The notes under the pieces are model-generated. The model was given only the letters and a program-made list of their open reading frames with translations, was not told where the DNA came from and searched no databases. A stretch of 51,929 nucleotides of DNA from Psammoneis japonica (taxonomy: Eukaryota): the NCBI GenBank assembly GCA_008632985.1, contig QPGO01000341.1, positions 1-51,929 of the forward strand, written 5' to 3'. A program made the position numbers and the translations under genes. Each line of letters starts with the position of its first letter. Positions within the stretch are counted from its first letter, which is position 1. Positions 3,866 through 31,124 of the stretch are shown here, in pieces.

Positions 3866-4437
3866 GTAGCCGACAAACTCGATTGACTTGACACGATCGT
3901 CTTTCGATCAAACACAGACATTGCGGACAAGCCTTTTGCTGATCTCTCTCGGGATATGTGACCGAAATGACTTATAGATTCGGCAATAATTATGAAGTAA
4001 TCGTGAAAGATGACCACACGTGATTCTTTCGTTCAAAAGTGTACTCGGATGAAATATTTAGGGACAGTCACGAGTGGCATAAAAAGACTTAGCCAATCGA
4101 TTTCAATTCTGACTCATCACATTTTTCTATGACTTTGACATATTCTTGTATCCGGAGATACCCGTGTTTACGTTAGTTCTACGTCAAGTGAACCGAAGGC
4201 ATTTTGATCGTCGATACCGATTTATGTCGTCGATGACCAACGATGACTTTTCCTTTGTCTCTCTCTTTTTTTCCCCCAATCTCACACAAAACGACGCAGT
4301 GTTGTTCATTNGTGCATCGCGGATACACGGATAAGGAAGCATCCAAGTTGCCTTTGTCCTGTAGAGAAGAAGAAGAAGAAGAAGAAAGCCGTTCCAGTTC
4401 TATTGACGAGCCGAAGCACAACAAAGACATTCTGGCA

Positions 4438-5176: not shown

Positions 5177-8075
5177 TCATTTGTAAGTAGTCCTTGCATC
5201 GTAATTCCCCGTGGTGGCATCAGACATTGAGCCCCGTAATCCCTGCTTCTCTTTGTCGTACAGAATATGTTCAAAGCCTCGCTTCTGCAAATAAGGACGT
5301 AACGACTTGGTGTTGACGGGATTCCTACGTGGCGAGAGGTAAACAGCGACTGTTAGGCAACCAACATGAAAAAGTAAAGATTGTTGTAGCGCCTAGAAAA
5401 TTTGCTTACCACCAGCAGTGCGTACACTGTATAATCACATCCAAGTTGTCAGGATTCTTGTGCATATCATGTTTCTGACGATTGTTTCGAATTGTCGTAC
5501 GTATCTGCTCTTTCTGATCCCGCTGTTTATCGTGTGCTCGCTCGCATACATGTGAGTAATCTTTGTCCTGGCCAGGCCGTTTGCAAATGCCGTCCACGTC
5601 CTGGGTTTGACATTGTATGTTTCCCCAATATTCAGACACCAAATACTACAGGAAGGGCGTTGCAGGACCTTCAGCAAACGCAGAACCTGCTTATCACGCA
5701 TTCCAATATTAAAGTTCTGAAAATGAAAACAAGGACAGTTCGCATGAGGAAGAGTGGAGTCAAACGCCATGAAAGGGACACCACAACGGACATACCTGAA
5801 TGTACAATGATTGACAATTGGTGTTCTCCTCGAGAGCGTCGAGCGCAGCATCAATGACAACCGTGGGAGTAGCTGGATCACTAAGGTACTTCTTCATCTT
5901 CAACACAACCATGTCGCTGTCGTTGTTCTTAAGCTTTTCTAGCAAGCTCAGCGTCTTGGGTCCAGTCAAGATGGACTGTGATGGCTGACGAACAGATCTC
6001 CGAACCCAGTTCCCCGCAGGTGTCACAGCATCGTCATCCGCAAGAATCGCCTTTAGCTCCGCGGCGGTGGGAGGTTTGGCTTCTGCCTTTACTCTCCTTG
6101 CTTCCTCTGCTTCAATTCTTGCTTTTTCCAACTCTTCCGGAGTCGGTGCCAAGATCGGCTGAGTCTTTTTCCGAAAGCCCGACTTTTTCCCCGATTTTGG
6201 TGGTCTTCCCCGCTTTTTCTTCTCAGCGGCTCCCTTGTCTGATTCGCTCTTCTTGGGTCTACCCCGCGGTCGTTTCTTTTTCTTTCGCTTGAATCTAGGC
6301 GGCACCCTCTTTTCAGTAGCGGTACCCCAGGCCGTCTCGCCCCAATCGCTATCCGACCAATACTCAACTTCACTACTCATGGCAGAACTGGTATCACCAT
6401 CCGAAGAAGCCAATACAATTTCGGACGAATTGGGATTGTCGTACTTTGCAAGACCCGGTGGAGTGCAGCCAAACATCTTTTGTGCCCAACGCAGAATCTC
6501 CTCCTCGTCCTCTGACGACGAGGTGTCATCATCAGAACTGTCCGTGTCCACGACTTGTACTGGTGTCTCTTGCGGTTGCTTGTTTTCAATGACCTGATCG
6601 GTTCCTTTCTTCGTTGGTTCTTGCTTTTTATCCATTGGAACCACTTTTACTTCTTGTTCCCGCCGCTTGACCGGCTCGGTCGTTTGCAACTGCATCGCCG
6701 TGTCCTCTTCGGCATGATTCACCGAGTGCGGTGATTCACTGACAATACCCGCCGGCATGTCGTGGGATGTGGCAGTTCTAGGAGTTGTAGAGATGATGCG
6801 AGCTTCCAATGCTACTGCGTGATGATCAGATCCGTGATGGTATTCTTCCGACGAGGCTTCCATTAAATCCGGCGTAGCCTCGATATCAAGCGCATCAACG
6901 ATCGTTCTCTTCTTTGCATCCGAGTCTGAATTGCGTAGCGATGGTTCTGGCTTCTTTTCCATACTCTCGACAGGCTTAACGATTTCCAGCTTTTCCGTGT
7001 GCGCCTTGGTTACTGACTTGACTTGTTTAGTGACACCGGTATGCCTAGGGTTCGCCACGCTCTCGACGACCGGCTTGAGATCTTCCTTCTCTTTGATGGT
7101 CACTGGTTTAACTACTCCCACACTCCCCATCGCCGCCTCTTCTTTTGCGACTTTTGCAGTCTTCGCTTCATGCTTGTCGGCGCTCTGATTCATATCGATG
7201 GTTCCTTTCTCGTTTCTGTCCTTCGACGGAACCGGTTCATCCGACTTGTCATGCTTTCCCCCAGCAGACAACGACTTGCTTTCTACATGTCGTACTTTCC
7301 CCAGTTCCCCCTTGTTCCCATCGGAAATTCCCTCTTTCTTCTTTGGAACTTCATTTCGCTGTTGTTGTTGTTGACTCGGTACCCACCGTTTCTTGAGCGG
7401 AGAGGAGCTTCTACCCAGACGAGTAGGCTTGTGCATAGAATTTTTCTTTTCTGCCTGCTGCGCTGGTGGCCTAAAGAGTGGATGTCCCGACTTTTGTCCA
7501 GGTGATCTAGAATACCCATTCAAACGTCTCCTATCCACGGAAGTGGAAGAAGACCGCGAGGGCGACTGTCTGCTGTGTTGTCGTGAATAAGAATCATAGG
7601 GAGATCTGCTGTGGTGGCTGTTGTGACTGGAACGTGAATGATGACTGGAAGACGACGAACGAGAACGAGACCGCTGTCTGTCGTATTGACCATATGAATG
7701 TGACCTTGATGATGATGGCGAGTAGTGGTGCTGTGATGATGATGCATACCGTATTCTCTCCGTGGTTGCTGCTTCTCTCCGCGGAACGGTATGTTTGTGT
7801 TGAGGTTCGTTTCGCACAACGTGTTGACTACTCTCTCCGTCACGCCTGCTGTACGGTTGCTGTTCTACTTGTCTCCGACGTTGTTGCTGATGATGATTCT
7901 CATGCTTCCATCTAGCACTCGGAGGTCCATCGTTGTGGTGGCGGTGATGCGGCAAGTCGCATTCATACAGAGGTCGCTTCTTTCCGCGTCGACCAAAGGC
8001 ATCGACCTCTTCACTAGCAAACGATGGACCCGACGAATCACCATCTTGCTTTACAAACGATCGAAATGCCGCCAT
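5177..8075 (-). CDS. Large low-complexity nuclear protein with two AT-hook-like motifs and a globular C-terminal domain; 3 exons (8075-5796, 5716-5410, 5324-5177)
   Basis: 771-aa ORF with an RS/H-rich N-terminus, 'KKRPRGRPKK' and 'KKKRGRPPK'. GT-AG introns 5795-5717 and 5409-5325 give a continuous reading ...LYIQ|NFNIG... and ...HCWW|NPVNTK...TYK*. An apparent frameshift near 5520-5530 lies in short homopolymers. Confidence 0.8.
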
Positions 8076-8697
8076 ACTGACATTTACAAGCCTTGACTAC
8101 TCGATACAACAATAAGGATGATTCAACCCTTCCAATGTCAAGAAAAACACCGCAACCTGCTGTTCGTGACTCAGAATCAGAATCTAGCTTTTCTCCCGAT
8201 CAACAGACGCGTTTCGAAATCCGCTAAGGACTCCTTTGCTTCTAAGCAGTGTGTCACGGTCTCTTTGTTGCGCTACTCAAGACAAGGACAACAAACACAG
8301 TGCAGAGCGGAGCGGCGTTGACAGCACTTGCCCGTCTTGGTTGATTTTATGTATGTCTGCTGGTGCAAAGCCGCGTTGAGTTTTCAGTTTGGTAATCATC
8401 CCCTGTAGATTCTACGTGAAGTTCGGGTTTCTGTCATGGCGCACGTGCAAGCTACGTAGAAAGTAGTACTCGCTATTTCAGTGGTCGTACGGCAGGCGTT
8501 AAATTCGAAATATTTTTATTCAGCTTTTAGTACAACATAAAACAGTGACGGTCTGTCTGGCTCCACGTTCCAGCACAGACCTACATATCATACGGTACAC
8601 AGACAGACCCACCATACCACACGGCCATAGCAAAAAATTAAAAATGCAATGTGCGAGCCTGCAGTGTGATTGTAGGACCCTCTCTCTAGCTAGCTAG

Positions 8698-8985
8698 ACT
8701 CCTTTCAATGTGAAATACCGGCAGGTAACCAAGCCGGATGCAACACCTTTGGACTGCACCAAAACTTACCCAACTTGCAAAAGCTTCACAAAGACAGAGA
8801 CTTGCTGGTTTTCTTTGCCAATGCAGGGGGTCTTGGAAAGCCCACAACGAAGGAAACACATGAAGCAGACACAACTCTTTACGCATGGTACATGGACGTT
8901 CGAGATTCATACAGACTAGTGTCATGAAGCTGTCGAAAGAGGAATTTGAAATTTTTGGAAGACTCCTCTCAAACGCCTTGGCTCA
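8698..8985 (+). pseudogene. Short diverged copy of the DUF1501 coding segment at ~20483-20725
   Basis: Direct nucleotide similarity: 'ggcaggtaaccaagc.ggatgcaacacctttggactgcac...tggttttctttgccaa...ttggaagactc...aaacgccttggct' occurs in both places, with indels. Confidence 0.8.
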
Positions 8986-9048
8986 TTCAGGAAAATCGGT
9001 GAAGAATTTCCGAGTTTCGAAACAGTGGGAATTGGTTCTTTGATCCAT

Positions 9049-9196
9049 TGGAGAAAGCATCAGTGCCGCACCGTCTTTCATGAGTCCAAATTCAATGGAA
9101 AAAGGCAACACAGATCTCAGTGCCCACTGTGACCTTCCAAACGATCTGACAGCGGGCTCCAAGGGATTGCAACACTGAGGATGTTTGGCCGGGCTG
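9049..9196 (+). repeat. 148-bp direct repeat, TpA-converted copy of 11252-11399
   Basis: Ungapped alignment to 11252-11399 ('gagaaagcatcagtgccgcaccgtctttcatgagtcc...'). Confidence 0.95.
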
Positions 9197-9199
9197 TCA

Positions 9200-11381
9200 G
9201 ACCTCTTGAAATTCCAACCGGTGAAGTGGTCGACCAGTCTGAGCTCTTCAACTGTTCCAACTGCCATGCCATGTTCAGTGCTGCCTGCCATTCTCACGGC
9301 ATCACTGTCATCACAGCCAAGCTTGCAGCCTGGCAATTTTCCATTGACTGCTCCATTGACTGAACCGAGGGATGTGCCTTCCATGAAACCTTCATCGGGA
9401 CCATTGCCAAGTCTGTCAAATGCCCCAAGTGCAGCACCAAGCGGCGTGCCATCCTTGACACCGTCAACAAGGCATCCGTGGCATTGAGTCCACACCATCT
9501 GATTCTCCATTGATGTCACAGAGCCCAACGGGGCTGCGATCTGAGGCTCCGACGACATTGTCTGAACCCATGATTTCCAACATTTTGCATCTGCAATTCC
9601 GTCTGACACTCAACGTGATCTTCAGACAACAAGCCCACCAGCTGGACTGAGCAATTCACAGTCACCAACACCTCCTTCAGCAATGGCATCAACAGCACCA
9701 AGTGTGCAACCCAGCAATCTGTGATCAGCAGCTCCATCGAGCAAACCAAGCAATGTGCCAACACTTCCACCCTTGATGGCATCATCTTCCTTCCAGTCAG
9801 CACCGCCTTGCAACACACCATCCGCTGAGCCATCGGGTGAACCAAGCTGAAGCATGTGCCATCTCTGACACCCTTCAAATGAACCTCCTTGCACCAAGCA
9901 ACATGCCGTTGACAACTGCATCATTGGAGCTGAGCAACGCACCATTGCTCACACCTTCAACGACACCAAATCTACAACCCCTGCATCAGAACCTGGTGTG
10001 GATCTTTGTGGTGCAACATCAACAAGTGCATCCTCTCTGCTGAGTGCTGTGCTTTCATCATTGACACCGTCTGCTGCTCCCAATGGTGTCCACAGCATCA
10101 CCATCATTGCGTCCAAGCTCCGAACTTGGCGACTCACCATCGACAACACCATCAGTTGGACCGAGGGATGTCCCTCCGTGAAACCTTCAGCAGCCCCATC
10201 ACCAAGTCTGTCAGGAGACCCAAGCAGACTGTGCCAAGCATGGAACCATCAAACAATCCATCCAATGAACTGTGCGGTGTGCAATCTTCGAGAACGTCAA
10301 TGCCATCATGTGCACCATCTGTGGCACCGAGTCAAACTCCGTCTCAGCAACCATCTGCTTCGCCTTCCATGATGCCACCATTTTCTCAGCTGCCATTGAG
10401 CCAGCCTTCAGAACCAAACTCCATGGAAGAACCCAGGCCAGCAGCCATTTCGGAAGATCTGCACTCTTCCCAACCTTCTAAGACATTGTCACCTTCTTTC
10501 TCACCTTCTTCAAGTCCTCCGCATTCCAAGGCACCGTCCGGGAGACCATCATCAACTGAGTCTTCACACTCATCAGAGGCACCTTCAACTCCCAAATAAT
10601 GAAATCCTGTTGAGTTGCCCCAGCACCGACAACTTTGCCTTCGTCCAGTCGTGGACCACGACAACACTCCACCATTCAGATTGCATCAGTGGAGACTCGG
10701 AGTCTGAAACGACTTAAAGGAAATTTATCACGGGAAACATCCCACCAGTAGAATCGTTTTCGATTGATGAGCTGCTGGGTCAAGAGTGCGAATCGATTCA
10801 AACGAGATTGCAGGCAAGCGGCGAAATCCTAGTTGGAATGAACGTAGTCTAATCGGTAATATTATCCCTGCAGTCGATTCTTTTCCATTTGCAGAAGCTG
10901 TGGGTCATAGATTTGAAACAGATTTTCACCGGCTATGTTGATTCACGAAAAGACTCGTCAAGTTTCTTCCAAATGCCAAACTCTGCGGTTGGAGGAGTCG
11001 AGGGTGCACAAGAAAGTCTGGTAGCGATGCAAACGGCGTCAAACGTGCTTCGATTTTAGTTGCAATCACCGCTGCAACGTTAAGAGTTGGCATGGCTATT
11101 TCTGCTATATGGAAAAGGTATCGAGTCCGAGACACTCGAACGGAAGCTCTCTCTTTACCAAAGGCAGCATCGACTCGCTTTCCAAGGGAGTGAATTTCGA
11201 GCATTGCATGATGAAGGAAGCCACCTCTCGTCACCCGAGAAGTCCACTCTCTAGAGAAAGCATCAGTGCCGCACCGTCTTTCATGAGTCCAAATTCAATG
11301 GAAAAAGGCAACACAGATCTCAGTGCCAACTATGACCTTTCAAACGATCTGACAGCGGGCTCCAAGGGATTGCAATACTAA
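9200..11381 (+). pseudogene. Decayed Pro/Ser/Thr-rich (PSxxPS) stalk protein with a C-terminal TM-like segment
   Basis: Repeats such as 'PSLSNAPSAAPSGVPSLTPST' and 'PSVAPSQTPSQQPSASPS'. A hydrophobic stretch 'SILVAITAATLRVGMAISAIW' is followed by KRYR near 11050-11125. Many stops and frameshifts. Confidence 0.6.
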
Positions 11382-11403
11382 GGATGTTTAGTCGGGCTAA
11401 CCG

Positions 11404-11685: not shown

Positions 11686-13356
11686 ACACCCGTTTTAATT
11701 CAGTACGAGACGATTCTTCAAACTGGGATGCTCGACCCTACTCAGGAGCGATAATGACGCGCAGCCAAGTTGCGCGTCGCTTTTCCGTTCTGGTGGGTAC
11801 TTCAACTCTTTTTGTTGTTACGCAACACGGCCGGCAGTCATCATCCAATCCATCCATCAAATAATCAAACTCGAGAGGTATCATCTTGTCTACGAAACTT
11901 GCCCCACACTGCACTCCACACTGAACTGTGCTCGAAAGCGTTTCGTTGTTTGGGATGCTCAATAAGCCCTTGTACAGGTACCGGTACATTGTATGGTGAA
12001 TGTTCCCGTTGCTCAAGTACTCTTTTGTGTGCTTTCAAAACTGGCGGTATGGTCAAGTCGATTCGACCATACGTACATTGAAGAATTTCCGACTTTCGAA
12101 CTAACGAGAATAATTGGTGCTGTGATCGACGATGCGGTGGTTGATGGTTGATGAGGATGTCAACAGCGACAAACACACAACATCATCATAGGTCTATTCT
12201 TGGATGATGAATGATGATGCATGGATCGATTTCTGGGCGAACATTCGGTCGGCCACGCGCGCACCGCGCGCGCAGTTTGCTCGAAATTCGTGGCTACGAA
12301 AAACCTACGTTGATTTTACTACCACGAGATTCTCGCCAGAGCGAGAAATCCGTTGGGCCGTCCGCGACTTGGCTCACAATTTCCAAATTCAGCCGTTTTG
12401 TTGCTGGTCGATTGTTTTTCTTTGTTGGCTTCCAAGCGGTGAGTGTTGGTCTTGTGCAGTTCCGTTCTGATTGTTGTTACGTTCGATTTCCTTGTCATGC
12501 GTCCCATGTGTCACTTCTGTTTGCAGCAACGTTGAGAGACGCTCTGGCAGGTGTCAAATGACAAATCAAAGCTCGGATTTACCGGCAGTGTCGAGTTTGA
12601 AATCGACTTGAAAAACCGTTGTCCTTTCCATCTGGCGAGAGGCAAGAATTTCTTTGTGTCGCTGTTGCATTTGTCCATTCTCCTCTTTGTGGAAGTCTCC
12701 CTGTCTCTGTCTCTCTCTGACAAACATGCTTTGTTTTCGTCTTTCCCGCAAGTGAAGCTCGGAGGTTGTCTCGCAGGCCATTTGAATCAAGCATGGCGAT
12801 GTTCACGGCACCGTCGTCATCGGATGAGGACTCACCATGGGAGGATTCACCATCAACAAATGCCCTCTGTGAAGAGCGCACTCGGGATTCGCACAATGGA
12901 AAGTCCAAACGGAGGAAGGGCAAACGAGACAATGACCAGAGTTGGGATAAAAGGCGGAAGCTGTCTGTTGAAGCGAAGCCATCAAATGAAAAGACACTGT
13001 CTCCCTGGCGCCATTTTGCCAACAACATTCCTTTGCCCGACTCGATGTTGTCCCACACTCAAGACCGTCAAAGCCATGCTGCTGCCACAAATGGGACAAG
13101 CGAATCGCATGCTGTCAAGCGAATGCCATCTTCACGTGCAGCGTCGGTAAAACGAACGAGTGAGTTTGCCGATGGAAAGCCACAAGTTTTGAACAGAAGC
13201 GCTAAAGCTGGCGGCTTCCCAGAAGAATCTTCCGTGAAGAAGCGCCAACGAGGTCCAGGTGAGATCGTGACTCGCTTTGTTTGTTTCCTGCATGATGATG
13301 GTTGTCGTCATGAAACTCACTCTTGTCAATTTCATCTCATTTGTTGAATGTGGGCA

Positions 13357-13791
13357 NNNNNNNNNNNNNNNNNNNNNNNNNNNNNNNNNNNNNNNNNNNN
13401 NNNNNNNNNNNNNNNNNNNNNNNNNNNNNNNNNNNNNNNNNNNNNNNNNNNNNNNNNNNNNNNNNNNNNNNNNNNNNNNNNNNNNNNNNNNNNNNNNNNN
13501 NNNNNNNNNNNNNNNNNNNNNNNNNNNNNNNNNNNNNNNNNNNNNNNNNNNNNNNNNNNNNNNNNNNNNNNNNNNNNNNNNNNNNNNNNNNNNNNNNNNN
13601 NNNNNNNNNNNNNNNNNNNNNNNNNNNNNNNNNNNNNNNNNNNNNNNNNNNNNNNNNNNNNNNNNNNNNNNNNNNNNNNNNNNNNNNNNNNNNNNNNNNN
13701 NNNNNNNNNNNNNNNNNNNNNNNNNNNNNNNNNNNNNNNNNNNNNNNNNNNNNNNNNNNNNNNNNNNNNNNNNNNNNNNNNNNNNNNNNNN
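13357..13791. other. Assembly gap (N run)
   Basis: 435 consecutive N. Confidence 1.
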
Positions 13792-14070
13792 GGATCACTT
13801 CCGATGGTCGCCGTGAATGCCAAGACCCCGACTTAGCCATGAGAACAATCAAAGCTGTTGGTGCTCGCAAGAAGACAACCATGTCTTTTGGTTCGACACT
13901 GACTGACACTGGATCTCAAAAACTCAGCAGTGGCGCTCATTTGAAACGGTCTGGCACCCTGTCACCACAAGCAACTGCTGCCCGTGATGCGGGCTGTCGA
14001 GGATTGCGTCAGAACACAGCTTCTGAGAAAACAAGTGAGCTTCGCGCTGCTGCTGCTGCTGCTGCTGCCA

Positions 14071-17000
14071 CAGCTGGTGCAGCAAAGCCGCCGATTCCCA
14101 CAGGACAGGAAGCTGTTGCTCCAAACGAGAAGGGGGTCCTTTGCGATGGTGCGAATCGTCCGCGTGTCCACTGCGCTCGTTCCGGCAACCCCGTCGCCGC
14201 TGCTGTGAGCACTTCTGCCGCAAGCAAGCCTGAGTCTAGAGTGCAAATAAAAGCCAGAGTCAAGAAGAAGAAACCACATTGTGCACTCAATCCCCTTCCG
14301 AGCATTCCTGAAGAGTGCGATGCAATTGATGGTGCGACTGCCAAATCCAGTCGTCATCAGAGTGGTTGTTGTGAGCAAAAGAACGGTGCAGCCAATGAAG
14401 CCATCGCAGTGGCTGCCAAAGATGCAAATGGAACCTTGGAAACGGGCAACTTGAAGGGAAAACCTTTCGTGGGAAACCGAAACCGAGGTCAAGGTAAGAC
14501 AACGACTCGCATTTCTTTTTGTCCAGTCGATCATGACTGTTCACGACAGCATTCTCATCGCCTTCATGTCAATTGTTGAGTTTAGTCGCAGTCACCAAAT
14601 CTTCGCGTGACAAGATGGGAACAGTTGGGATTTCTGATGGCGAAAAGGAAGTGGAGCGATGCAATGTGCACAAGAGCAAGGGCCGTCGGAAGAACGCAGA
14701 ACGCCCCAAAACAATCAGCGCTGACTCAACACCTGCTCAGCTCGGCAAGGTCCCTCTTTCGAGTGCTCTCGCGAGCAAAGAGAACACAGGTCCGAACGGG
14801 ACTGACCAAACCAAGACGTCTGTGAGCAATTGTGAATTCAAAATGAGTCGTTCGCAAAGAAATGCGGTTCCAGCTCCTCCACTTGTCCCAACCGGTAAAG
14901 CTGCAGCTCCCAAGAAACAGAGAACTTTACAATGTGGTGGTGAACGGTGCGGTCGTTCCGAGAACAAGAACACTGCCACCCATGAAGATGCATCATTTGT
15001 GGCAGCCCAAGCCTCGCCTTCAGTTGAAAATAGAACTCCTGAAATGGCCGGTTTGTCGAAAGGACACACCTTGAACATCACAGGCAAGAAAATGGCTCGG
15101 TTTGTTTCACTGTGCCTCGTTCTTGATGAGGAATTTATTCTCACCACTTCCACATCTCGTTCGTTGCATGTAGACGCCGATGGCGGAGCGTGCGTGACAA
15201 ACTCCGGGCATGATGTTAACGTGGACGCACCCGCTGTTACGAGTCAACTTGGGAAGATCCAAGCCAGGACGCCTGACACAAGTGTGAAATCGGGATCAAC
15301 TGAGCACACGAGGAAACAAACGGGTGCTTCTCCGGACGCATCCGTTTCCACCATGGATTTGGAAATGCCGAATTTCAAGCTTAGAGATGGTTGTCACAAG
15401 ACCACAATGAAATTTGATGAACTGGATTCATTCCCCATGCAAGAGCCTGGCAAGGAAGCAAACGAAGAAGACGTCGATGAAGAAAATGAATCTGATGCCT
15501 CGAGTGCCTTTTCTTTAGGATCTCCGCCTGTTGTTGTCACTGGCACTGCGGTCAATGCTTCATTTAGCGCTCTCGTCGCTTCGTCTGAAGAATCAAGCCG
15601 CAACCGAATCCCAGCTGGTGCAGTGAAGCCACCAATTCCCACAGGACAGGAAGCTGTTACTCCAAGCAAGAAGGGGATTCTTTGCGATGGTGCGAATCTT
15701 CCGCGTGTCCACTGCGCTCGTTCCGGCAACCCCGTCGCCGCTGCTGTGAGCACTTCTGCCGCAAGCAAGCCTGAGTCTAGAGTGCAAATAAAAGCCAGAG
15801 TCAAGAAGAAGAAACCACATTGTGCACTCAATCCCCTTCCGAGTGTTCCTGAAGAGTGCGATGTAATTGATGGTGCGACTGCCAAATCCAGTCGTTGTCA
15901 GAGTGGTTGTTGCGAGAAAAAGAACGGCACAGCCAATGAAGCCATCGCAGTGGCTGCCAAAGATGCAAATGGAACCTTGGAAACGGGCGACTTGAAGGGA
16001 AAACCTTTCGTGGGAAACCGAAACCGAGGTCAAGGCAAGACAACGACTCGCATTTCTTTTAGTCTGGTCGATCATGACTGTTCACGACCGTGTTCTCATC
16101 GCCTTCATGTCAATTGTTGAGTTCAGTCGCAGTCACCGAATCTTCGCGTGACAAGATGGGAATGGTTGGGATTGCTGATGGCGAAAAGGAAGTGGAGCGA
16201 GGCAATGTGCACAAGAGCAAGGGCCGTCGAAGGAACGCAGAACGCCCTGAAACAATCTGCGCTGACTCAACACCTGACCAGCTTGGCAAGGTCCCTCTCT
16301 CGAGTGCTCTCGCGAGCAAAGAGAACATGAGTCCGAACGGGACTGACCAAACCAAGACGTCTGTGAGCAATTGTGAATTCAAAATGAGTCGTTCGCAAAG
16401 AAATGCGGTTCCAGCTCCTCCACTTGTCCCAACCGGTAAAGCTGCAGCTCCCAAGAAACAGAGAACTTTACAATGTGGTGGTGAACGGTGCGGTCGTTCC
16501 GAGAACGAGAACACTGCCACCAATGAAGATGCATCATTTGTGGCAGCCCAAGCCTCGCCTTCAGTTGAAAATGGAACTCCTGAAATGGCCGGTTTGTCGA
16601 AAGGATACACCTTGAACATCACAGGCAAGAAAATGGTTCGGTTTGTTTCGCTGTGCCTCGTTCTTGACGAGGAATTTATTCTTGCCACTTCCACATCTCG
16701 TTCGTTGCGTGTGGACGCCGATGGCGGAGCGTGCGTGACGAACTCCGGGCGCAATGTTAACGTGGACGCACCCGCTGTTACGAGTCAACTTGGGAAGATC
16801 CAAGCCAGGACGCCTGACATAAATTTGAAATCGGGATCAACTGAGCACACGAGGAAACAAACGGGCACTTCTCCGGACGCATCCGTTTCTACCATGGATT
16901 TGGAAATGCCGAATTTCAAGCTTAGAGATGGTTGTCACAAGACCACAATGAAATTTGATGAACTGGATTCATTCCCCATGCAAGAGCCTGGCAAGGAAGC

Positions 17001-17152
17001 AAACGAAGAAGACGTCGATGAAGAAAATGAATCTGATGCCTCGAGTGCCTTTTCTGTAGGATCTCCGCCTGTTGTTGTCACTGGCACTGCGGTCAATGCT
17101 TCATTTAGCGCTCCCGTCGCTTCGTCTGAAGAATCAAGCCGCAACCGAATCC
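14071..17152 (+). repeat. Tandem duplication, two 1541-bp units (14071-15611, 15612-17152)
   Basis: Constant 1541-nt offset (e.g. ORFs at 14862 and 16403), with CAG microhomology at the junction. Confidence 0.97.
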
Positions 17153-18844
17153 CAGGTGAGAATGTGACTCGCTTTTTCTTGCTGATGTGATTTCATTGTT
17201 GTTGACACTACCTCTTGCCGGCATCATTTCATTTCATCGAACACAGACACAGAAAACAGATCTTCTGATGAGTGTGAGAGGCAGTTTGATGTTTGCGACT
17301 CTGTTGAAGAAGAGGAAGAAGAAGCCAAGGCACCCACTCTTCCCACGACAGCCGGTGACCGTGAAGCTGGTGGGTGGCGTTGCTTTCCCATTCAAGGAGC
17401 GTCCGATGGGCGAGGCCTGGTTTCGAATGCAACCGCTGATGCGACTGAGACCAATGGGTCAACGGATCCAGCAAGCAAATCCACTGCCACTTGCTCGAAT
17501 CAATCAGTTTCTAACATGTCATCTGGTTTGCTGAACAGAGACAATGGATCGTCTGGCCATGGTGAAACGCAGCTTGTTCTTCATGACTCTGACGAAGAAG
17601 AGGAAGCAGATGAAGCCAAAACACCCACACTTTTCATGACGGCCAGTGGCTGTGAAGTTGCCAGAGACTTGGGTGGCTCTATTATTGAGGGAGCGTCCGA
17701 TGCCACGACTGAAGATGCCGAAGAAGCTGTGAGTGAAAGCAACAATTTGGATAGGATAGATTTAGGGGCTCCACCTGCTGCTACGACCGGGAACTCCGAG
17801 CCAGCTGACAACAGGACCAGCGAATCGTCGAGACTAGTACGCCATGTCAAGAGATGCAAAAGTGGTGCAGGCGCCAGGGTAATGACCCTAGCCGAGGCTT
17901 CAAAAGCCGGATTAAGCTTCGCTAAAGGGCTTGTACCGGTAGGCTATTGCATTCCGGACACGCTTCATCTTATTTTCCGTAACATGGTTCGTGACAAAAA
18001 CGTGAGAAGGGAACTTAAGATGTCCAAACCGGCGATTCGAAAGGGAATTAGGCAACTGGGTAGCGTCCGAGAAATACGTCCCTTTTTGTGCGAGCAAAGG
18101 ATTTGAGGCGCAACTGTTGTGCCGTGAAGAATATCAGAGTAAAGTGGCGTTGCTTCTGAAAGAAGAAGGCGTATATCTTGTCATCGTGGATTGCATAGAC
18201 AGATTCCTTGGCGTGACGGCCAAGCATGCAGTGGCATATTTTGCGAAGCAAGGTATCCTCGTAGACACTGAGCCTTGCCCGCGCTTTGTCGAGCTTGACG
18301 TAAAGGATCGCAAGACGCTTAAGGGCCGAAAGAGAATGTCCACCAAGATAGCAAAGAGCATCTTTAAGCGATTATTTTGCGGCGAAGAAAACACAATATT
18401 TGAAGCATACCAGATTTCAAGGAAAGTGGATCCGACCGGATTTGAACTCTTGGATGAACTGGAAGAAAAGGAAAAGCAGACCTACTAGAGAGCAAGACGC
18501 GTAAGAAACGGGTAATTAGGTTCGATAATTAACTGTATAGCGCAATGACGCCATTTTGTAAACCACTGCATAAATTTGTAACGAGAGACTAAAGTTGGTA
18601 GCGCCACCGTCTGTTTAGGTATTCTTGTGCAAGCATTCCAGAGACGCGGTGACAGCCCAAGTTCGGACCATGGAAAGAGTTCAGCATGAAATTCGACAAG
18701 GAGTTCATAAGAATGACCTAAATGATGTCAACGAGCCGTTGATCCACAGTCACGTCTTCTGTAGTTCACCAAAGGGCGGATGCGGTGTCAGGGTCATACC
18801 AAAAACAATGTTGTCTATCACTGGGCAAAAACTCTATGCGAACT

Positions 18845-21322
18845 GAAGGTGAAGGTCAGCCCACGCGGTTGAGTGGCCATTGTCGACGACGTGCCCGTTG
18901 TCAACGGCAAGGTGCGCCATGTTGATGAAAGCACGACCAATTTCTTCAAGGTGGTTTGGTATAACGGGTTTCCAAAAGCATCGCTTAACAATTGTGGTGA
19001 ATGCGCCGTGGTTGACGAGGAAAACTGCTTATGCAATACTCAAGTCGAAGAAACCATGGTGTTAATGTGAATTCAATTCTCTCAGCTTTGAGTGTTGGGG
19101 CGCTTGACCCAAGTTCCTTCGATAGCGGTACGTATGCCTCAACGAGACTTAATGATTCCATCACTGTACACAAAAGGTATTCAAGGATGGGGGGCGATAA
19201 AATATTCGAAGTCGAGGACTCGACCGGCCGCACTCATTTTTTGAAGAATGTCAGATCAATTGTGAAGGTCCAAGGCAGGTTTTCATTTAGAAACCCCGTT
19301 CACTTTATGAGTCTCGTACCTTCAGAAACCAACGTTCAGGATGTCATGTACGAAGTGGACGAGTTGCTTAAGCACTTGCTGTGCCATCCAAATACTCCCC
19401 GTTCCTGGTCACATTGCTTATTCAGTGATTTGGTATCTCGAATCCTAGTCCGCGATATGTTGCTGAGTGCTCGGCAGCCTTTCGGACCGGGGTTTACAAG
19501 TATACCGAGCTTTCGTTCGGTAAAGCAGAGTACGGGGACCTATTTGCGACATCTGTGTGCATTCAACTTGACAGAGAAGCTTGATCAGCTATTCTCGACT
19601 CAGATCCGTCCCACGGATCCATCAGAGAGCCTCTCCTAAGGGTGTTTACCCAGCATGATGCGGAGCATGGATTTCCAATCAAAATCTCGCGATGGCGTTC
19701 CGGCTCTTCAGGTTATTTTTATGCACATGAACATTTTTAGCTTCTTTCGCAGGTAATTTATGGACACGTGCAGAGGGCAAACGCAACGTTACAATCATTC
19801 CTCATGAAAAATGATGTTGGCTTGATTTCTCTATCAGCAAGTTCGCACCTGAAGGGCCGGTATCGAGCGCATCACTTGTAGCTGCAGAAGCTCAGCTCCC
19901 AGACGTACGTACTCGCACCCTTCTTTCCCTTGCTGCTTTTGTTTCATTTCTTTTGCTCAGCATTTTGTTTCAAATTCTTGTTTCCATGGAGAAGATGGCA
20001 AAGAATATTAACCTCGTGAATGGTTTGCACTCCCTCGTCAAGTACGGGCTATCATCGTGTGCTTATTTCTTTGGCTTTGATTCACAAGAATTCAGAGAGA
20101 GGATTTGCACGAATGACGGCAACTTTGCCGACTCCACCGGTGTGTTAAAATATAAACAGAGGGGAACAACGCACAGAGCGTCATAAATGAGCTTGCTACC
20201 TTGCTCACATCCGGCCGCTTAGAGCCCAAAACCGAAACGTCATCGCCAAGGCTTACAAAGACGCCCTCTGTCAAGCAGACGCAGGTACTGTACCGCCTTG
20301 CACGTGGGTGGACAAGTGGCTGTTGAAAAGGATGAATACAGGGCAGTTGTGGTGCTCATATTAGACGGATGATGCGATTCTTTCAACATGCTCGTCCCAC
20401 ACAATCGCCGAGTGCAGAATGGGGCTGACGCATATTCGCGATATGCAATAGCAAGAGACTCAGTACGCTTGCCGCGGAAGAGACTCCTTTCAATATCGGC
20501 AGGTAACCAAGCTGGATGCAACACCTTTGGACTGCACGAAAAGATACCCAACTTGCAGAAGCTTCGCAAAGATAGAGACTTGGTTTTCTTTGCCAACGCG
20601 GGGGTTCTTGGAAAGTCCACAAGGAAGGAAACGCATGAAGCAGACACGCCGACACAACTCTTTGCCCATGATACATCGACGTTCGGTCGGAGCAGGAATT
20701 CTTGGAAGACTCGCAAACGCCTTGGCTGTCGGTAAGGCCTAGCATCCTTGTCAATTGATACAGTTCAATTGTTTTGGACGGCAAGCAGGGAGTGTCCGAT
20801 CCGCCGACATCATTGAGCAACACCGGAGTCAATCGGTTCGTGCCAATTGGTTCCGCCACCATGGCAAAGGCCGAAATGGAGCGAGCCATGGGTTATCTCA
20901 ACAACGCCACAAAACCAGACAGCAGCTTTATGGCCAGCACTTGGTCAACCTTGTTGCTCCAATCCCTCTGCCAGAATGAAGATTTGCACCAAGTTCTAAA
21001 ATCAACCTGCGTGACCCAGGATTTTGGTGAAACCGACTTGGGGAAAAAGTTCGAGATCAAAGTAAGTGGAAGGAATGCGGATGTCTTTTATCTGGAACAT
21101 GGCACCTGGGACCACCATGCGGGGTTAGGGGAAGGCCTCGCAAACAACTTTTCCGAGCTTATCGATGCGATTGGATCTTTCGTTGCCGAGTTCAAAAGTC
21201 AAGGAAATTACGACAGTGCCATTATAGTTCTGGCATCCGATTTTGGAAGAACTTTGAGCGCAAACTCGGGAGGTGGAGCTGACCATGAATGGGGCGGAAA
21301 TTACTTTATGCTCGGAGGCGGT
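18845..21322 (+). pseudogene. DUF1800-DUF1501 fusion gene (diatom-type), decayed and 3'-truncated
   Basis: 'FSFRNPVHFMSL', 'HPNTP', 'FGISNPSPRYV', 'HGSIREPLLRV', 'LATLLTSGRL', 'DSFNMLVPH', 'FGLH', 'WDHH', 'SDFGRTLSANSGGGADHEWGGNYFMLGGG'; multiple stops, frameshifts and deletions. Confidence 0.85.
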
Positions 21323-21725
21323 ATGGACTTGGTTCGTCCGATGTACCGTGTCATCCAACGGTTTGTTGTTCGTCTTCGGGGGAAGGATGATGCTGCTACC
21401 CCGCTCTCTATCTATTGTTCGGCGGGCAGCCATGTGGTCCTGATCACCTCTGAAGAAATTGAGGACTGTGTGCGGGATATCGCCGCGTATCTGTATAAAC
21501 TTGATCCCATCAAGGATGCAGACGCGATCAACCGCTGGTCGTCCCACTCTCTTCGGGTTCGTGCTGGTGCATTGCTGCACCAGATGAATTTTGGTGCGGA
21601 GTCCATTCAATGGCTCTTGCGATGGAGGTCTATGGCCTTTTTGGTATACTTGCGCAACAGCACCTTGTTGTCGGATCGACAATGCAGGGCTCTTGATCGC
21701 ACCCTTGGCATGCCTCACCTTTTCA
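21323..21725 (+). mobile_element. C-terminal half of a tyrosine recombinase (DIRS/Ngaro- or Crypton-like remnant)
   Basis: 'WSSHSLRVRAGALL...IQWLLRWRSMAFLVYLRN' matches the HxLR...RW.S.....Y catalytic signature of TE tyrosine recombinases. Confidence 0.8.
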
Positions 21726-22219
21726 AAATTTTTAATTTTCAAATTTTCAATTATTCCCTTTTCTCTACATTTTCGAATATCTTTATTCGACCGTTCGGTT
21801 ATCTAAAATATTTTATTATATATAAGATAAATGCAATCTGGTCTCGAGTGTGTTGTTTTTCTTACACGGCATGTATGTTGCTCTTTGCATCGATGTTCAC
21901 ACTTGGCACACACCAAGCCAAAAAGGTCTCCCCCATTGCCCCCGTTTTTGAATTCTAGGGGATTCCCCAGTGTGTTAAAAAAATCTCCTTCCCAAAACCC
22001 CAAGCTTGCTTTTCATGCAGCATGTTTACGTTTCCCTGCTTCGGAGCCACACAATCTGTCCGTCAACCCTCCCGAGAGTGATGGCTTGTGGCTTAAACCC
22101 CCCTTTTGTCTTTTTCTTTTTTCTGGCTGGCTGCATTGCCCCCCAATGAAATGGGCGTGCACACTGCACTTTGTGTCGGCAGCAGCATGGTCTGTTCACA
22201 CAGTGCAGGGGGGGCTGAC

Positions 22220-23790
22220 AGAAATTGAAGACAGCTGGGTGCAAGAAAACAATGGCTCCTTGCTGCTGTCTAAACAGCAGATGAGTCTCCATGCAGAGAC
22301 CGTCACATGAGCTGAAAGACTGGTGTCGTTGACATCGGTGCCACTGTCATTGTTCTTGTGAGCCGTGTGGCTTAAAAGCAAACTGAATTGTGCACTGCGG
22401 AACTGAGAGCACACACAATTGTGTGTGACAAACCAAAATCTTGTTCAAATCCCATCACTCCCCGGTTTGCTTGAGGGGTCAACAGCGATGGATTTGAGGT
22501 CAGATTGGTTGAAAGCCTTGGGATCAAAGTTCCAAAACATCAGAGGACAAAGGAGGTTCCAGACTTGGGAGCAACCCCAATGCTTGCCAAGGATGTCAGC
22601 TGAGTTGCGGGAGCCTTCAATGAAAACAAAACTCAAGGAATCCAGAGGCAATCGCCTCATGCACATGATGGAAAGAGAGGGCGGTGTGTCGCTTGTGTGA
22701 CTTGGAGTGCAGGATGGTGGCACTCTCCACAACCAACTTGTTGTCACCAAACATGTGACATGTTTCACAAATGGGGATGCCAAGGCAACACAAAGTGGTG
22801 CGCAGATCAATGATCTGCTCAACGCCTGTCCTTGCGGCAACAAACTTGGATCCATGCGCAGCAGTCTCCACTGTTGCTTGTTTCTTAGAGAACCAATCAG
22901 CCGGGAACTTGTTGAGGAAATGGAGGATGCCAGTGACAGAAGGTCCAGTGAGCATGCAATGGAACAAGCTCACATCAAGATGCGCTCCAGCTCCAGGTGG
23001 GATCTCACACTGCTGCACTGTGACATCAACAGTTTTTTGGATCGCATCGCATGTCGTGCACTCACATTTCCATGTGTTGTGTTCCATGAAATTGTTTCAC
23101 ACTCCCTGTTTTGTGAAGCCAAAGGCTTTCCATTTTCAACATTTGTGAGAATGAAAATGCACTGGGTGTGTTCTTTGATGTCTGTGGAATGTGCCCAGGC
23201 AAACTGTCAATGATGTGCTGCAAGCATGAAGGAGGAGATGCATTTGTGAAATTGCCTCTTTTTCTGTTGGCAATCATTCACATTGTCATTGCAGGACAAA
23301 TTTACTGTGAAGCTTGCACGTGGAATTCTGCAGGCCCAACGTCACACGGAGTCCCACCCAGGACTTGAACCCATCTCAACGCAGTGTGTCATGGCAAAGA
23401 ACTTGCCAAGTGGCTCAGGCACATCTTGTGGGAGCAGCTCTTCTGCCTCCCCATGCACAGATTGGGCCCAGCCATGCACAGCCTTGGGAAGGTCCAAACA
23501 GTTGGGCTCCTTGGTGTGCACTTGTAGAGGGCACCATGCATGACGCATCTTTGAGAGGAATCCACAGATGCATTTGACATGGTCTGGGTGGCCTCGGTGG
23601 GGCACTGCACAGAAGCTAGACAGGGACATGACAGCCGCAGTGATGTCAATGTGACCAAGAGATGTGGCCCATTGCAGGGAACCAATCAAGGATTGGAGTT
23701 GGTGGATGCCCTCTGGCTCAAGCAATTTGGGGGTGTCAAGCTCAGGCTGGTCTCCCTTGTCAAGAATTGCTGAAGCTTCCACCCGGAATT
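22220..23790 (-). mobile_element. Copia/Ty1 (CoDi-like) element A: 3' part with RT C-terminus, RNase H, PPT and 3' LTR start; left boundary approximate
   Basis: 'GDQPELDT...QSLIGSLQW', 'SVTGILHFLN...WFSKKQATVETAAHGSKFVAA...MFGDNK...KRH...ADILGKHWG'. The PPT GGGGAG (22458-22463) abuts TG at 22457. Confidence 0.9.
22979..23375. mobile_element. 397-bp non-autonomous TIR element (MITE) inserted in Copia A
   Basis: Imperfect TIRs gatgcgctccagctccaggtggga / revcomp gatgggttcaagtcctgggtggga, with TCAA on both sides. Removing it restores the Copia frame 'THCVDVSLFHCMLTG'. Confidence 0.8.
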
Positions 23791-24180
23791 TGAACTTGAC
23801 AAGCTTTTCAGCAGGCAGAAAACAATGGATTCATGCTGCAGTCATCCAAAGCTCTTTTTGTGTGTGTGCGGGATTGAACCACATGACAGCAAGGCCAATG
23901 GCCAATTGAAGTGCAACAGCACTGGCTGTCTCCTGTTTGCATTTTGATGGATCCACCAAGTAAATTGTGGCATGTCCCTCCAACTTCAGCGGCAATGACA
24001 AAAGTTCCAGGGAGTGCAGCAGGGTTCTGGTCCAGCAACTGTGCGTGCTGATGCCATTTCCAAGTTTCAAGGGTGGTTGCCAAGTGCCAAGAACAGCGCA
24101 CAGCTTTGCACAGTGCGGCAAGAAAGGAGTGCACCGACTCAGTTGCGTCAGTCAGGGAAATCGACACAAGGATGTGTCCC

Positions 24181-24405
24181 TGCGATGACTCTCATCTGAG
24201 AGTTTGGGGGAGTTGACTGAAGGTTGAATGACAAGTGCATTGCTGGCGGCAGGGCTGACAACAGCAACAGAATTGATGAAGCTGCCAATGTCTTGTTACA
24301 CTGGATGTTGTAATTGTGAGAAGTTCTTGAGAAAAGCAAGGTGGCAAACTGCATGCACAAGCACAAAAGTGCGCAAATCGCGCATGAGTTTGCACTGTGT
24401 TGGCA
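24181..24405 (-). repeat. 3' LTR of Copia B
   Basis: TG...CA termini; ungapped match to 31137-31361; adjacent PPT GAGAGGGAG at 24406-24414 on the minus strand. Confidence 0.92.
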
Positions 24406-26801
24406 CTCCCTCTCAAACAAAGGAGCTGCCAACCGCAAAGCAACTTAAGAACAGACTTGAATTTAACAGTGACGAGCCCTTTGGTCACAATGTCAGTGTG
24501 TTGCAAGTCTGTTGTGATCTTGGATGCAGTGACTTGGTTTGGTTTCAGCTGTGAACGAAACCAGCGACACTTGATTGCACAGTGCTTGGATCTTGGTGTG
24601 ACTTGGCCAGGTTCCATGTTGGCCAGAGTCAAAGCTCCAGCATTGTCCTCCCACACAGCGGTCCTGATGGTCTTGGTGGTTCTCAGACCAACTCCAATGC
24701 CTTGAGAAATGGCTTGCATGGTGCAAAGGAAGGGAAGGACAGTTTTCATGCAAGTGGAGAGAGCGCTGCACTCTGCCTCCATTGTTGAGAGTGTGATCTC
24801 AGGTGCAAGCTTGCCAGGCTGGATGACAGGACAGTTCGAAATGCAAATGACGAATCCTGTTTGGCTCTTGACACAAGCCAGGTCTTGCTTGTCTTCATCA
24901 TGTGGCCACAATCCAGCAAAATCTGAGTCCACAAAGACATCAATGTTGAAGTCACCTCATGGCTTGAGGATCAAACCTTCCTCAAGCATCCATTTTGAGC
25001 ATCTGCCAATCCTTTCAAGGGCCAGTTCATGCAAGCAGCGTGGACTGTGAACAAATTGTGCTGCAGAGCTAACTGTGCAGGTGATGTCAGGCCTGGAATG
25101 GCCTTGAAGATGCTGGCATGATCAAAGGCTCCATTCGGCGGGTCTCCACCAGTGTTCTTGACCAATGGAGCAGCCAGTGCAGGCGTTTGGGCCTTTGGCA
25201 GATGGCCTGCATTGAGGGCTTTGATGACACATCTGGCTGGACCGCTCTGAGTGAGCTTGACAGTGCCATCGTTGGTGTCGCTGTCAATGTGTGCACCTGA
25301 AAAGCCTGCAATGGAATCTTTGACTTCGATGGCCAGACCGCCATTGACTTTGAGTTTTTTGACACCACGTTGATGTGCTCTTGCTTTGGAGAAAAGAACA
25401 ATGTGTCGTCAACATGCACAAGGCAGATGACTTTGTCAGACACAAAGAGACACGGATCAACATCATCCTGTGATTAAAATCCGGTGTCTTTCAATTTTGA
25501 TTTAAGGTGCAGGAAGAAATTTCGTGGTCCTTGATTGAGACCATGCATGGTGCCTGGAGCATCCTCGTGGCATTTGTGTGAACATGCCAGAGCATCCCCG
25601 CTCTTTGGATGTCATGGCATCCCATTTGGGATCCTTGTCAATTGGAGCATGCACAAAAGCAGCAACACTGTCGACTTGCTTGGTTGAGAGCTCCAGAATT
25701 TGGGAAAGCACAAGCATCAACTGCGCTGTTGTCCAATTGACAACTGGAGCAAAGGCATCAAAGCAATCAACACCCTCCAATTGCTCATCACTGCAGACAC
25801 AGAACCGGGCTTCACATTTTCGGATTGCACCATCAGGGTGCCATTTGCATTTGAAGGCCCAAGTGGATGGCAAGACATTCATCCAGTCTTGGCAGTCAAC
25901 TTCTTCCCAGGCGTCTTTTCCATTGACAAGGGAATCAATTTCAACATCACAAGCCTTGAGACAGGCTGCACAATTGGGTCCACTCATTGCTTCTTCCCAA
26001 GTGGGGTCATCCACAGAGTTTGCATTGGCTGCAAGGGCTAAAGGACGCATCTCCTTGAGTGCACCATGGACTTGATCGGCATTTTTGTTGAAGACATTGA
26101 TCATTGCACGTAAGTCTTTTGACCCCGGTGCGTTTGTGATGCCATCCCATTGCAGTGCCATCAAAAACTGCTCATTCAGTGCACCTGACTTTGCTGAGTG
26201 TTTGGGATTCTTGCAGGCAGTTGGCAATTCGTTGGACGGAGTTCGAGTGTCAGCTTTCACAGCTTCAATGAGACGGTCTGGTTTCTTGACGGTTCAGCCG
26301 CTTCAAGTCCAAGCAGGAGTTGCAGTGGCATTTTGAGCCAATTGGAGAGGCTCTGCTTTGTCAGAACCAAAATCCAGGTTGTCAGGTGAGTCGTGATGAT
26401 CAACAAGTGATGATTTGCAGTTGCTGTCATCACTGAACCCATCAATTTCGACTCCCTCTGGAGCCTCTAAAGTCACAGATTCTAGATCATCCAATGATTC
26501 TGCATTGTTGGTGGGAAGCTCTCCCTCTGGAGCTGAGACAGAAGAGGCAGGAGTTGGAGGAGGAATGCTGGCAGAGTGTTGTTGTTGTCACAACTTGCAC
26601 ATCTGACAACAGCTCTTGCGGTGGCGGCACTCTTCTGGCATCAGCCAATTGTCGCGTGTCACCAGGAGTTGGTGGCGAGGGTCCCAGGAGGGCTCTTGTG
26701 CGTGAGCATGGTTGACTGCAGAGTCAGCAGTGAGCAGGGATTCCCAGACGTTGGCGGAGAATGGGGCATCTTGGAAGAATCCCCCAGAGTCGCTGTTGGG
26801 T

Positions 26802-27248
26802 TGCAGCATGCATGCAGACAAAAGGTTGTTTTTGTCACGCCCTTTGTGACATTTAAAGGCTGCAACACGTCGCCGTGACACATTGGCTCTTGCCAGCAGC
26901 TGTGTGTTGCACTCCTCCCCATGTGTCACGCGTCCATGCGGCTCTTTACTGACGTGTGCTGACACTGCACGGTTTTGGCGGAACAGTGTGGGTACGTGCG
27001 AAGGAACACACAGAACTGCACAGAGTTTTGCGCGTTCGACAGTGATCAACGTTGCTGCAGACAACTCCCACTCAGGGTTTCGAACCCCTGGCCTCCTGCC
27101 CAATGGTTGCGATGAACCACTCCGCTGTGAATTCACAATGCAGCATGCATGCAGACAAAAGGTTGTTTTTGTCACGCCCTTTGTGACATTTAAAGGCTGC
27201 AACACGTCGCCGTGATACATTGACTCTCATCAGTGGCTGCACATTGCA
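26802..27248 (-). mobile_element. 447-bp mini-LTR element (TRIM-like): 110-bp LTRs (26802-26911, 27139-27248), PPT and 4-bp TSD
   Basis: Both repeats run TGCA...TGCA. PPT GGGGAGGAG at 26912-26920 (minus). GGGT at 26798-26801 and 27249-27252. It interrupts the Copia B integrase region. Confidence 0.88.
27063..27134 (-). other. tRNA-like sequence with Pol III A-box and B-box inside the mini-LTR element (not a canonical tRNA)
   Basis: Minus strand: CAGCGGAGTGG (A-box-like; GCG/CGC D-stem), then GGTTCGAAACCC (B-box; T-loop TTCGAAA). The anticodon arm is poorly formed. Confidence 0.6.
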
Positions 27249-30200: not shown

Positions 30201-30666
30201 ATTGATGACTTGGAAAATGTCACTCATGTTGCACTTGACATGATTCGACCACATGGTTGTGATGGACACAGCCAGATCACGAGCATCTTTGAGTCATCAC
30301 TCATGTCATGCTTGGCATGATTTGACCACCTGGCCGTGAAGGACATGGCCAGATCATGAGCATCTTCAAGCTTGTCTGGATTGTTGATGTTGAAATTGAG
30401 CAAGTTGAAGTGCATCTGGTGCTTGGCAATGGCTTTCAGAAACAGATTGTTGAGCTTGTCAGGGTCCAACTTGTCCCTCTGCTCTTTTGTGTGGAGAGCA
30501 GCAAGGGTTTCCTTGGATGCTTTTGGTGTCACGTGGACATTCACCTTCCATCGGTGCATCTCCACCACAGTTGACATGGTGCTGGCTGGCAGAGTCGCAG
30601 CACTGCTGGCTGGCAATGGAGGCAGATTAATTGTGCTGGACAAAGGAGAAGGGCTGGTCATTCGTG

Positions 30667-31010
30667 TCATGCAGGCTGTGCGAGAAAGCGCAGGTTCTTT
30701 GGATGATGGTCAGTGGTGTTGCTGTTGTCAGCTTGAATTTGAGCCCACTGTTCAGTCATGCAAGTGACAGCAGCCTGTCGGTCTTGGACAGTGATGGTAC
30801 GACAAAAGTTTTGAATTTCGTTTGCAACAACCACACGATCGCCAACGCGAAAATCCGTGACGGTCAACTCTCGGTTGGTTGAAGTACAAGCAGTGCCGAC
30901 TCGTTCAAGGTTCTGTTGATCAATTTTGTCTGTCATGTGACAAATGAGGTTGGCTTCTTGCAGTTGAAGTGCTTGCAGTTGTTTGATGAGGTCATTGAGA
31001 ACAGCAGAAC
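30667..31010 (-). pseudogene. Small ORF upstream of Copia B gag: coiled-coil followed by a KOW/SH3-like motif
   Basis: 'LNDLIKQLQALQLQEANLI...FRVGDRVVVAN...HHPKNLR', between the PBS and gag; its stop overlaps the next ATG at 30670. Confidence 0.5.
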
Positions 31011-31124
31011 GTCAACCGGACATCGATGTTCTGAAAGAAGAAGTGTACGTAAAAATGTACAGAGCTCAATTCTTGTCCAACTGAGAGAATGAGATGAGCG
31101 CAGGAGTCATCAAGCATGATGCTT

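Follow-up and report, generated by a model that had tools for sequence, protein, structure and literature searches.

The DNA analysed here, a stretch of 51,929 nucleotides (contig QPGO01000341.1, positions 1 to 51,929 of the forward strand; hereafter the window), includes a 1541-base sequence assembled as two head-to-tail copies, unit A (14071–15611, + strand) and unit B (15612–17152, + strand), both within a block (12331–17679) that is depleted of TpA (TA) and normal in CpG (CG). The units differ by reciprocal CA versus TG swaps in excess over chance, the window is divided into TA-poor blocks and TA-normal zones, and in the blocks a loss of TA is balanced by a gain of CA and TG. We attribute the swaps to a process that changes TpA to TpG or CpA in bounded blocks and that struck two versions of the unit independently (probability about 0.72). 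In this scheme an A-to-G change on either strand would convert TpA to TpG or CpA within sharply bounded DNA blocks, one of which, 12331–17679, includes the 1541-base unit, with the two versions hit independently. Where both versions were hit, on opposite strands, CA would come to face TG (12 sites), and where a single version was hit, TA would face CA or TG (9 sites). The chemistry would be enzymatic deamination of adenine in DNA, the product being read as G at replication, and the targeted entity would presumably be a chromatin or sequence block rather than homology between copies.

Alignment of units A and B gives a period of 1541 with no indels and identity at 1473 of 1541 positions. The 68 mismatches comprise 57 transitions and 11 transversions, and the first 88 bases of unit B carry 10 of them. 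A first, sequence-only reading of this DNA had reported reciprocal CA versus TG differences between tandem copies, and the aligned units bear this out for the assembled head-to-tail copies, with 12 swap sites (CA in A and TG in B at 9, the converse at 3); all 11 of the dinucleotide examples it quoted were found where it had placed them. The remaining dinucleotide pairs, counted in either order, are TA/CA (6), TA/TG (3), CG/CA (10) and CG/TG (3), and 21 of the 34 differences at pyrimidine–purine (YR) dinucleotides are thus TA/CA, TA/TG or CA/TG; 87 CG and 10 TA are common to both units. When the observed A/B substitutions were re-placed at random 20000 times, a mean of 0.35 CA/TG swaps and a maximum of 5 were obtained, so that the 12 seen were reached in 0 of 20000 re-placements, while adjacent mismatch pairs numbered 15 against a mean of 2.96 and a maximum of 11. 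CpG is plentiful in both units, as that reading had also stated (92 and 97 per unit; observed/expected (o/e) ratios of 0.92 and 0.96), and TpA is scarce (14 in A and 16 in B; o/e 0.15 and 0.18).

Mismatches are not spread evenly along the units. Three stretches are identical in A and B (14159–14302, 144 bases; 14790–14965, 176 bases; 15350–15514, 165 bases, with their partners in unit B), and outside them a mismatch occurs about every 29 bases; 5 of the 10 TA common to A and B fall within these stretches, for which gene conversion (homogenisation) or protection is possible. Several TA retained by A and B alike are part of GTA or TAG words, which are possible splice signals, and a donor-like AAG/GTAAGA in unit A (14494–14495) is GCAAGA in unit B (16035–16036).

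The block that includes both units contains 38 TA (o/e 0.13) and 282 CG (o/e 0.89), with CA and TG raised (o/e 1.22 and 1.46), against a TA o/e of 0.57–0.59 in the flanking zones. Its edges are sharp, TA being dense up to 12320 and again from 17680, 5.3 kb further on, and TG and CA do not differ significantly in number within it (P 0.12). Inside the block, 279 bases upstream of unit A, the assembly has a gap of 435 N (13357–13791). Three further blocks were identified in the window: 2221–3866, with 0 TA in 1646 bases and a CpG o/e of 0.07; 8918–10478, with 1 TA and a CpG o/e of 0.47; and a 28-kb block, 22374–50367, in which TpA and CpG are both nearly erased (TA o/e 0.04–0.07, CpG 0.10–0.34, CA and TG ~1.6–2.1). 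Across the four blocks TA o/e is 0.00–0.13 and CA and TG o/e 1.2–2.1. Relative to normal zones (TA o/e 0.58 and CG o/e 0.98, taken from 15 kb within the same window only), 12331–17679 is 134 TA and 29 CG short and has a surplus of 125 CA+TG, and 22374–50367 has lost 957 TA and 1326 CG (2283 together) and gained 2542 CA+TG; the blocks at 2221–3866 and 8918–10478 show TA+CG losses of 133 and 103 against CA+TG gains of 114 and 109. Outside the tandem block, losses and gains agree to within ~15%. In all four blocks the TA+CG loss therefore matches the CA+TG gain within ~10–25%. TpA erasure occurs both with and without CpG erasure, and the two are for this reason treated as two processes: CpG decay is a separate process, strong in 22374–50367 and nearly absent around the tandem.

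Strand composition differs among the blocks. The + strand of 2221–3866 is strongly purine-rich (GC skew ~0.35, AT skew ~0.3), and 8918–10478 is the only block in which CA is clearly ahead (CA 198, TG 134; binomial P 0.0005), with a weak opposite lean in 22374–31900 (TG 1094, CA 980; P 0.013).

That the swaps are independent hits on ancestral TpA, as the sequence-only reading had proposed, is well supported by composition, by model comparison, by a site with three states and by a 145-bp repeat pair elsewhere in the window. Its suggestion that the same TA was resolved on opposite strands in the two versions is supported too, A of one strand giving TG and A of the other CA. The same two products would also arise from an ancestral CpG if methylated cytosine had been deaminated on opposite strands, leaving TG in one copy and CA in the other. 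This origin has in its favour the 13 sites at which one unit has CG and the other CA or TG, and the CpG o/e of 0.07–0.47 in other blocks, which indicates that CpG decay operates in this genome. As the source of the swaps it is nonetheless improbable. Depletion of CpG is expected wherever such decay has yielded TpG and CpA, and it is seen in the other blocks but not around the tandem, where o/e stays at 0.89–0.96 (0.92–0.96 within the units), 87 CpG are intact in both units and the loss of CG is small (29, against 134 TA). Rates taken from singly hit sites (0.07 per copy for CpG) predict 0.24 discordant sites for a CpG ancestor and 1.0 for a TpA ancestor, with 12 seen, and homogeneous models fitted with the swaps included give χ2 values of 71.0 (CpG) and 11.1 (TpA). 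The three-state site (15279–80) is CA in unit A, TA in unit B and TG in a contig of a public run, X1, and includes no CG; only TA connects CA, TA and TG by single steps. X1 is one run of one study, available as contigs only, and contains 0.67 of the sampled words; comparison with it covered 14860–16400, where nothing from two further data sets, X2 and X3, aligned. CpG decay can account for the 13 CG-versus-CA/TG sites, and decay at methylated CpG is probably behind both these and the CpG loss in 22374–50367. With TpA as the ancestral state of the swaps, an estimated ~43 TA were originally present in the unit (10 common to both, 9 singly hit, 12 swapped and ~12 invisible concordant hits), corresponding by arithmetic to an o/e of ~0.47, compared with 0.58 in normal zones.

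The direction of change, TA to CA or TG, is shown within one genome by the 145-base pair, one copy of which (9051–9195, + strand) lies inside TA-free DNA of a depleted block and the other (11254–11398, + strand) in a TA-normal zone. The two have 7 mismatches, 4 of which are TA in 11254–11398 versus CA (1) or TG (3) in 9051–9195, so that the copy inside the block has CA or TG at all 4 places where its partner keeps TA. A second pair, 24179–24405 and 31135–31361 (both + strand; repeat alignment), belongs to the TA- and CpG-poor 28-kb block and has 38 mismatches in 227 bases, 37 of them transitions, including 13 CA/TG swaps, which indicates that the pattern is general within the window.

TA that survives in the blocks has a biased context, as expected for an enzyme with sequence preference. 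Survivors (n = 145) differ from TA of the normal zones (n = 597) in both the 5′ base (χ2 P 1.5e-8) and the 3′ base (P 1.6e-14), with relative survival of 0 for ATAT, 0.13 for ATAC, 0.22 for ATAG, 3.0 for TTAA and 3.8 for CTAA/TTAG. In our own fit this order is reproduced by a single effect, that of the base at position −2 relative to the A, on both strands, which suggests that the edited A is preferred when this base is A, followed by G, C and T. Within the units, T before or A after the TA was found at 9 of 10 survivors and at 10 of 21 hit sites (Fisher P 0.046).

Several points weigh against the proposed TpA process. The χ2 of 11.1 for the TpA model, on 1 degree of freedom, reflects an excess of untouched and of doubly hit sites; neither homogeneous model fits, and site heterogeneity must therefore be assumed, although the heterogeneity required by the TpA model is only moderate. 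The 13 CG-versus-CA/TG sites (10 CA and 3 TG) lie beyond a strict TpA process. The mass balance of the tandem block is approximate (163 lost versus 125 gained), and the normal-zone baseline is limited to 15 kb of one window. All changes are deduced by comparing copies, no mutation having been caught as it occurred, and neither protein representatives nor metagenome contigs yielded an unduplicated orthologue with which to polarise the 12 swap sites. Family scans detected no deaminase-encoding sequence in the window.

The sequence-only reading had placed the hits after duplication, and this part of its claim is not supported, as X1 contains both versions at about equal depth and no contig across the junction. 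It is quite possible, if somewhat short of an even chance, that the units are alleles laid head to tail by the assembly, or a tandem that arose by unequal exchange between diverged alleles, in which case the swaps would record independent hits on two haplotypes rather than on post-duplication copies. Sixty-six X1 contigs fall on 14860–16400, 37 of them at least 99% and 29 of them 95–99% alike to the TA-poor sequence. Version A is reproduced with 0 differences over 204 letters (depth 36.1), and version B with 0 differences over 92 and 228 letters (depths 28.7 and 32); the shared parts of the unit are at depths of 71.5–83.6. No X1 contig spans the 15611/15612 junction and 15640–15691 has no X1 cover, but X1 contigs are filtered and a hole in coverage proves nothing by itself. 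Another contig (depth 77.6) covers 15394–15614 and extends 60 letters further, its first 30 letters beyond 15614 being identical to the right flank 17156–17185. A word graph that contained the junction at comparable depth should have ended this contig at the branch, which argues that in X1 the right flank follows both versions, as it would for alleles. The N gap only 279 bases upstream of unit A points the same way, as does the divergence outside YR dinucleotides (22 of 1541 positions, half of them transversions), which implies that the A and B versions are old. Against alleles stand the form of the junction and the nature of X1. The assembled junction is clean and free of the carried-over flank that stacked haplotype contigs usually leave, and CAG is common to 15612–15614 and 17153–17155 (+ strand), a 3-base microhomology at the repeat end (chance ~1 in 64) of a kind frequent in real duplications; the shared CAG is followed by CTGGTG at the unit junction and by the splice-donor-like GTGAGA in the right flank. 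The hole and the unspanned junction would both be accounted for by the loss of a single contig of ~120 bases, and X1 may be another genotype, because it differs from the assembly where A and B agree (14863–66). Metagenome contigs searched for exact patterns contained neither the A/B junction nor the unit end joined to the right flank (0 matches each). Reading the units as alleles or as a mis-join leaves the TpA inference intact, and only ‘after duplication’ becomes ‘after the two versions separated’.

At 14863–14866 both units have TGCG and both X1 versions CACA (depths 40.8 and 39.6), the two X1 versions differing from each other by one A/G just upstream; the CA/TG swap here is between data sets, not between units. 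Over 15744–15899 the summed depth of X1 contigs reaches 555–634, compared with ~30–80 elsewhere, and parts of the unit seem to be present in X1 in more than two versions or copies.

It had also been suggested that a host-gene-like duplication was the target, and neither element of this suggestion is borne out. The unit matched 0 Pfam families in a family scan, and for the 527-residue open reading frame (ORF) that spans it a search of 1.84 billion representatives found no relative at E ≤ 0.001. Mismatches show no codon-position bias (10/7/9 and 15/11/16 in the frames of the long ORFs) and no synonymous bias, synonymous to non-synonymous codons standing at 6:15 and 11:26 in these frames, similar to 4:16, 6:16, 6:25 and 9:27 in the off-frames. 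In TA-poor DNA, TAA and TAG stops are so scarce that long ORFs arise on both strands; this calls for caution in annotation, as the open frames of TA-free DNA look like genes. The idea that the unit is a single exon copied via circular RNA (start CAG/CTGGTG, end CAG/GTGAGA) was set aside, as no RNA data set was listed for the stretch and an open frame continues upstream of the start. As for duplication as the trigger, sensing of the repeat followed by mutation of both copies would resemble repeat-induced point mutation (RIP) of fungi; both units are indeed mutated, and the authors of a preprint on a comparable process in Bigelowiella natans, discussed below, liken theirs to RIP as a defence. 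Repeat sensing is very unlikely here, however, as the unique parts of the block are more depleted (TA o/e 0.08 in 12331–13356, 0.07 in 13792–14070 and 0.06 in 17153–17679) than the units themselves (0.15 and 0.18), and only one copy of the 145-base pair was hit, its partner being untouched. A dispersed repeat in TA-normal DNA (8696–8902 and 20481–20685, 83% alike) likewise retains 4 TA common to both copies, one of which stops 16 bases short of a TA-free block, and the direction of change is opposite to that of RIP, which creates TpA. Nor does it seem credible, except as an outside chance, that the pattern is artefactual or intrinsic to the DNA, the TA-poor state being due to errors of base calling or consensus where a base is modified, or to DNA imported from a source that avoids TA, and the swaps being noise. 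The assembly does have gaps and one ambiguous base, and X1 and the assembly disagree at a few YR sites; yet X1 matches the letters specific to A and to B without a difference over 204 and 228 bases, all 66 of its contigs match the TA-poor sequence at 95% or better, the differences are ordered (swaps, balanced gain and loss) rather than random, and the 145-base pair displays the conversion inside one genome.

The closest known counterpart of the proposed process is that described in mutation-accumulation lines of B. natans by Mettrop et al. (2026 preprint, bioRxiv 10.64898/2026.01.13.699255), where two integrated viral regions are reported to have acquired 231 mutations, of which 230 were A to G or T to C, all of these on TpA and at rates ~1000x background. 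Both systems have in common the change of TpA to TpG or CpA according to strand, the confinement to bounded regions and, over the long term, clusters in which TpA is depleted and CpA+TpG enriched. Depleted genes there are reported to be enriched in reverse-transcriptase and transposase families, and here a degraded RVT_2 remnant lies in a block. The systems differ in that de novo mutations were observed in B. natans and are deduced here from copies only, and in that depletion is far stronger here (o/e 0.00–0.13 over 1.6–28 kb, versus a Rho of 0.45 given for the viral region there). CpG erasure accompanies some of the blocks here and is not mentioned in the main text of the preprint, where ‘CpG’ appears 0 times, and the preference for the base two places 5′ seen here is absent from its Results and Discussion. 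The present organism probably belongs to a lineage other than B. natans, judging from the named hits of an eIF5B exon, all of them diatoms, and from the lack of proteins close to the ORFs of the window in a collection in which B. natans would be expected to be present. No other report of TpA-to-CpA/TpG mutation of repeats was found in the literature searched, the coverage of which excluded most subscription journals.

Fungal RIP changes CpA to TpA, so that TpA rises; it needs duplication and hits both copies. The present pattern resembles RIP in its dinucleotide-specific transitions riddling repeated or foreign DNA, in the compositional scar left behind and in copies that differ by many transitions, but here TpA is destroyed (o/e 0.00–0.13) and CA and TG are raised, the hits extend to unique sequence, and a repeat pair can have one of its copies spared. 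Decay of methylated CpG likewise yields TpG and CpA and, by the same logic of opposite strands, gives CA in one lineage and TG in the other, but it has no means of removing TpA, and around the tandem CpG has been preserved. Adenosine deaminases (ADAR, TadA/ADAT2) offer a likeness in that deaminated A is read as G; they differ in acting on RNA, whereas here both DNA strands are changed, in about equal numbers. tRNA deaminases act on A34, which comes after U33. The preprint proposes tRNA A34 deaminases (TadA/ADAT2) as candidates and states that ADAR prefers a 5′ U (bioRxiv 10.64898/2026.01.13.699255). The preference suggested here, of ATA over GTA, CTA and TTA, may be of the kind that a descendant of a tRNA-A34 deaminase would show.

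The window probably represents a new instance, in an extreme form and in what is probably a new lineage, of a process described once in a preprint. A tentative and rather doubtful extension is that a defence based on regulated adenine editing of DNA, so far reported only from one chlorarachniophyte (B. natans), also operates in a second lineage, probably among the stramenopiles, with near-total TpA erasure in blocks of up to 28 kb, independently of CpG decay, with a preference for ATA, and perhaps still active. Independence from the decay of methylated CpG follows from the tandem block having lost TpA but not CpG, and differences between X1 and the assembly at YR sites (14863–64, 15279–80) are the reason for considering that the process may still be active. 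If this extension is true, TpA editing would be ancient or recurrent in eukaryotes, and a comparison of the two lineages could identify the enzyme. Mutation aimed at TpA is opposite in direction to fungal RIP and would be a newly described means by which a eukaryote inactivates DNA; erasure of TpA and of CpG can be uncoupled, and paired copies serve as natural experiments that give the direction of change, its strand logic and a first look at the extended sequence preference.

Among 137 ORFs scanned in the depleted blocks the sole family match, itself sub-threshold, is the copia-type reverse-transcriptase remnant in the 28-kb block (25502–26293, − strand; RVT_2, E 8.4e-6, 26 bits, below the Pfam cut-off of 31.6). 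Its translation has 0 tyrosine in 263 residues, and the ORF gave 0 matches in a PDB sequence search. The window has a eukaryotic character, and its eIF5B exon (51460–51927) is 61–68% identical to its best-scoring hits. A 778-residue open frame in TA-normal DNA (5763–8096, − strand) has no Pfam family and one relative in 5.8 billion proteins (45% identity over 48% of its length), and the ORF at 20759–21958 (+ strand) matches DUF1501 in part (E 7e-18); its relatives come from environmental contigs and are 40–55% identical over ~1/3 of the query. The right edge of the TA-poor block that includes both units is straddled by an ORF (17186–18106, + strand) containing an acidic motif in copies ~70% alike and 288 bases apart (17247–17408 and 17535–17702).

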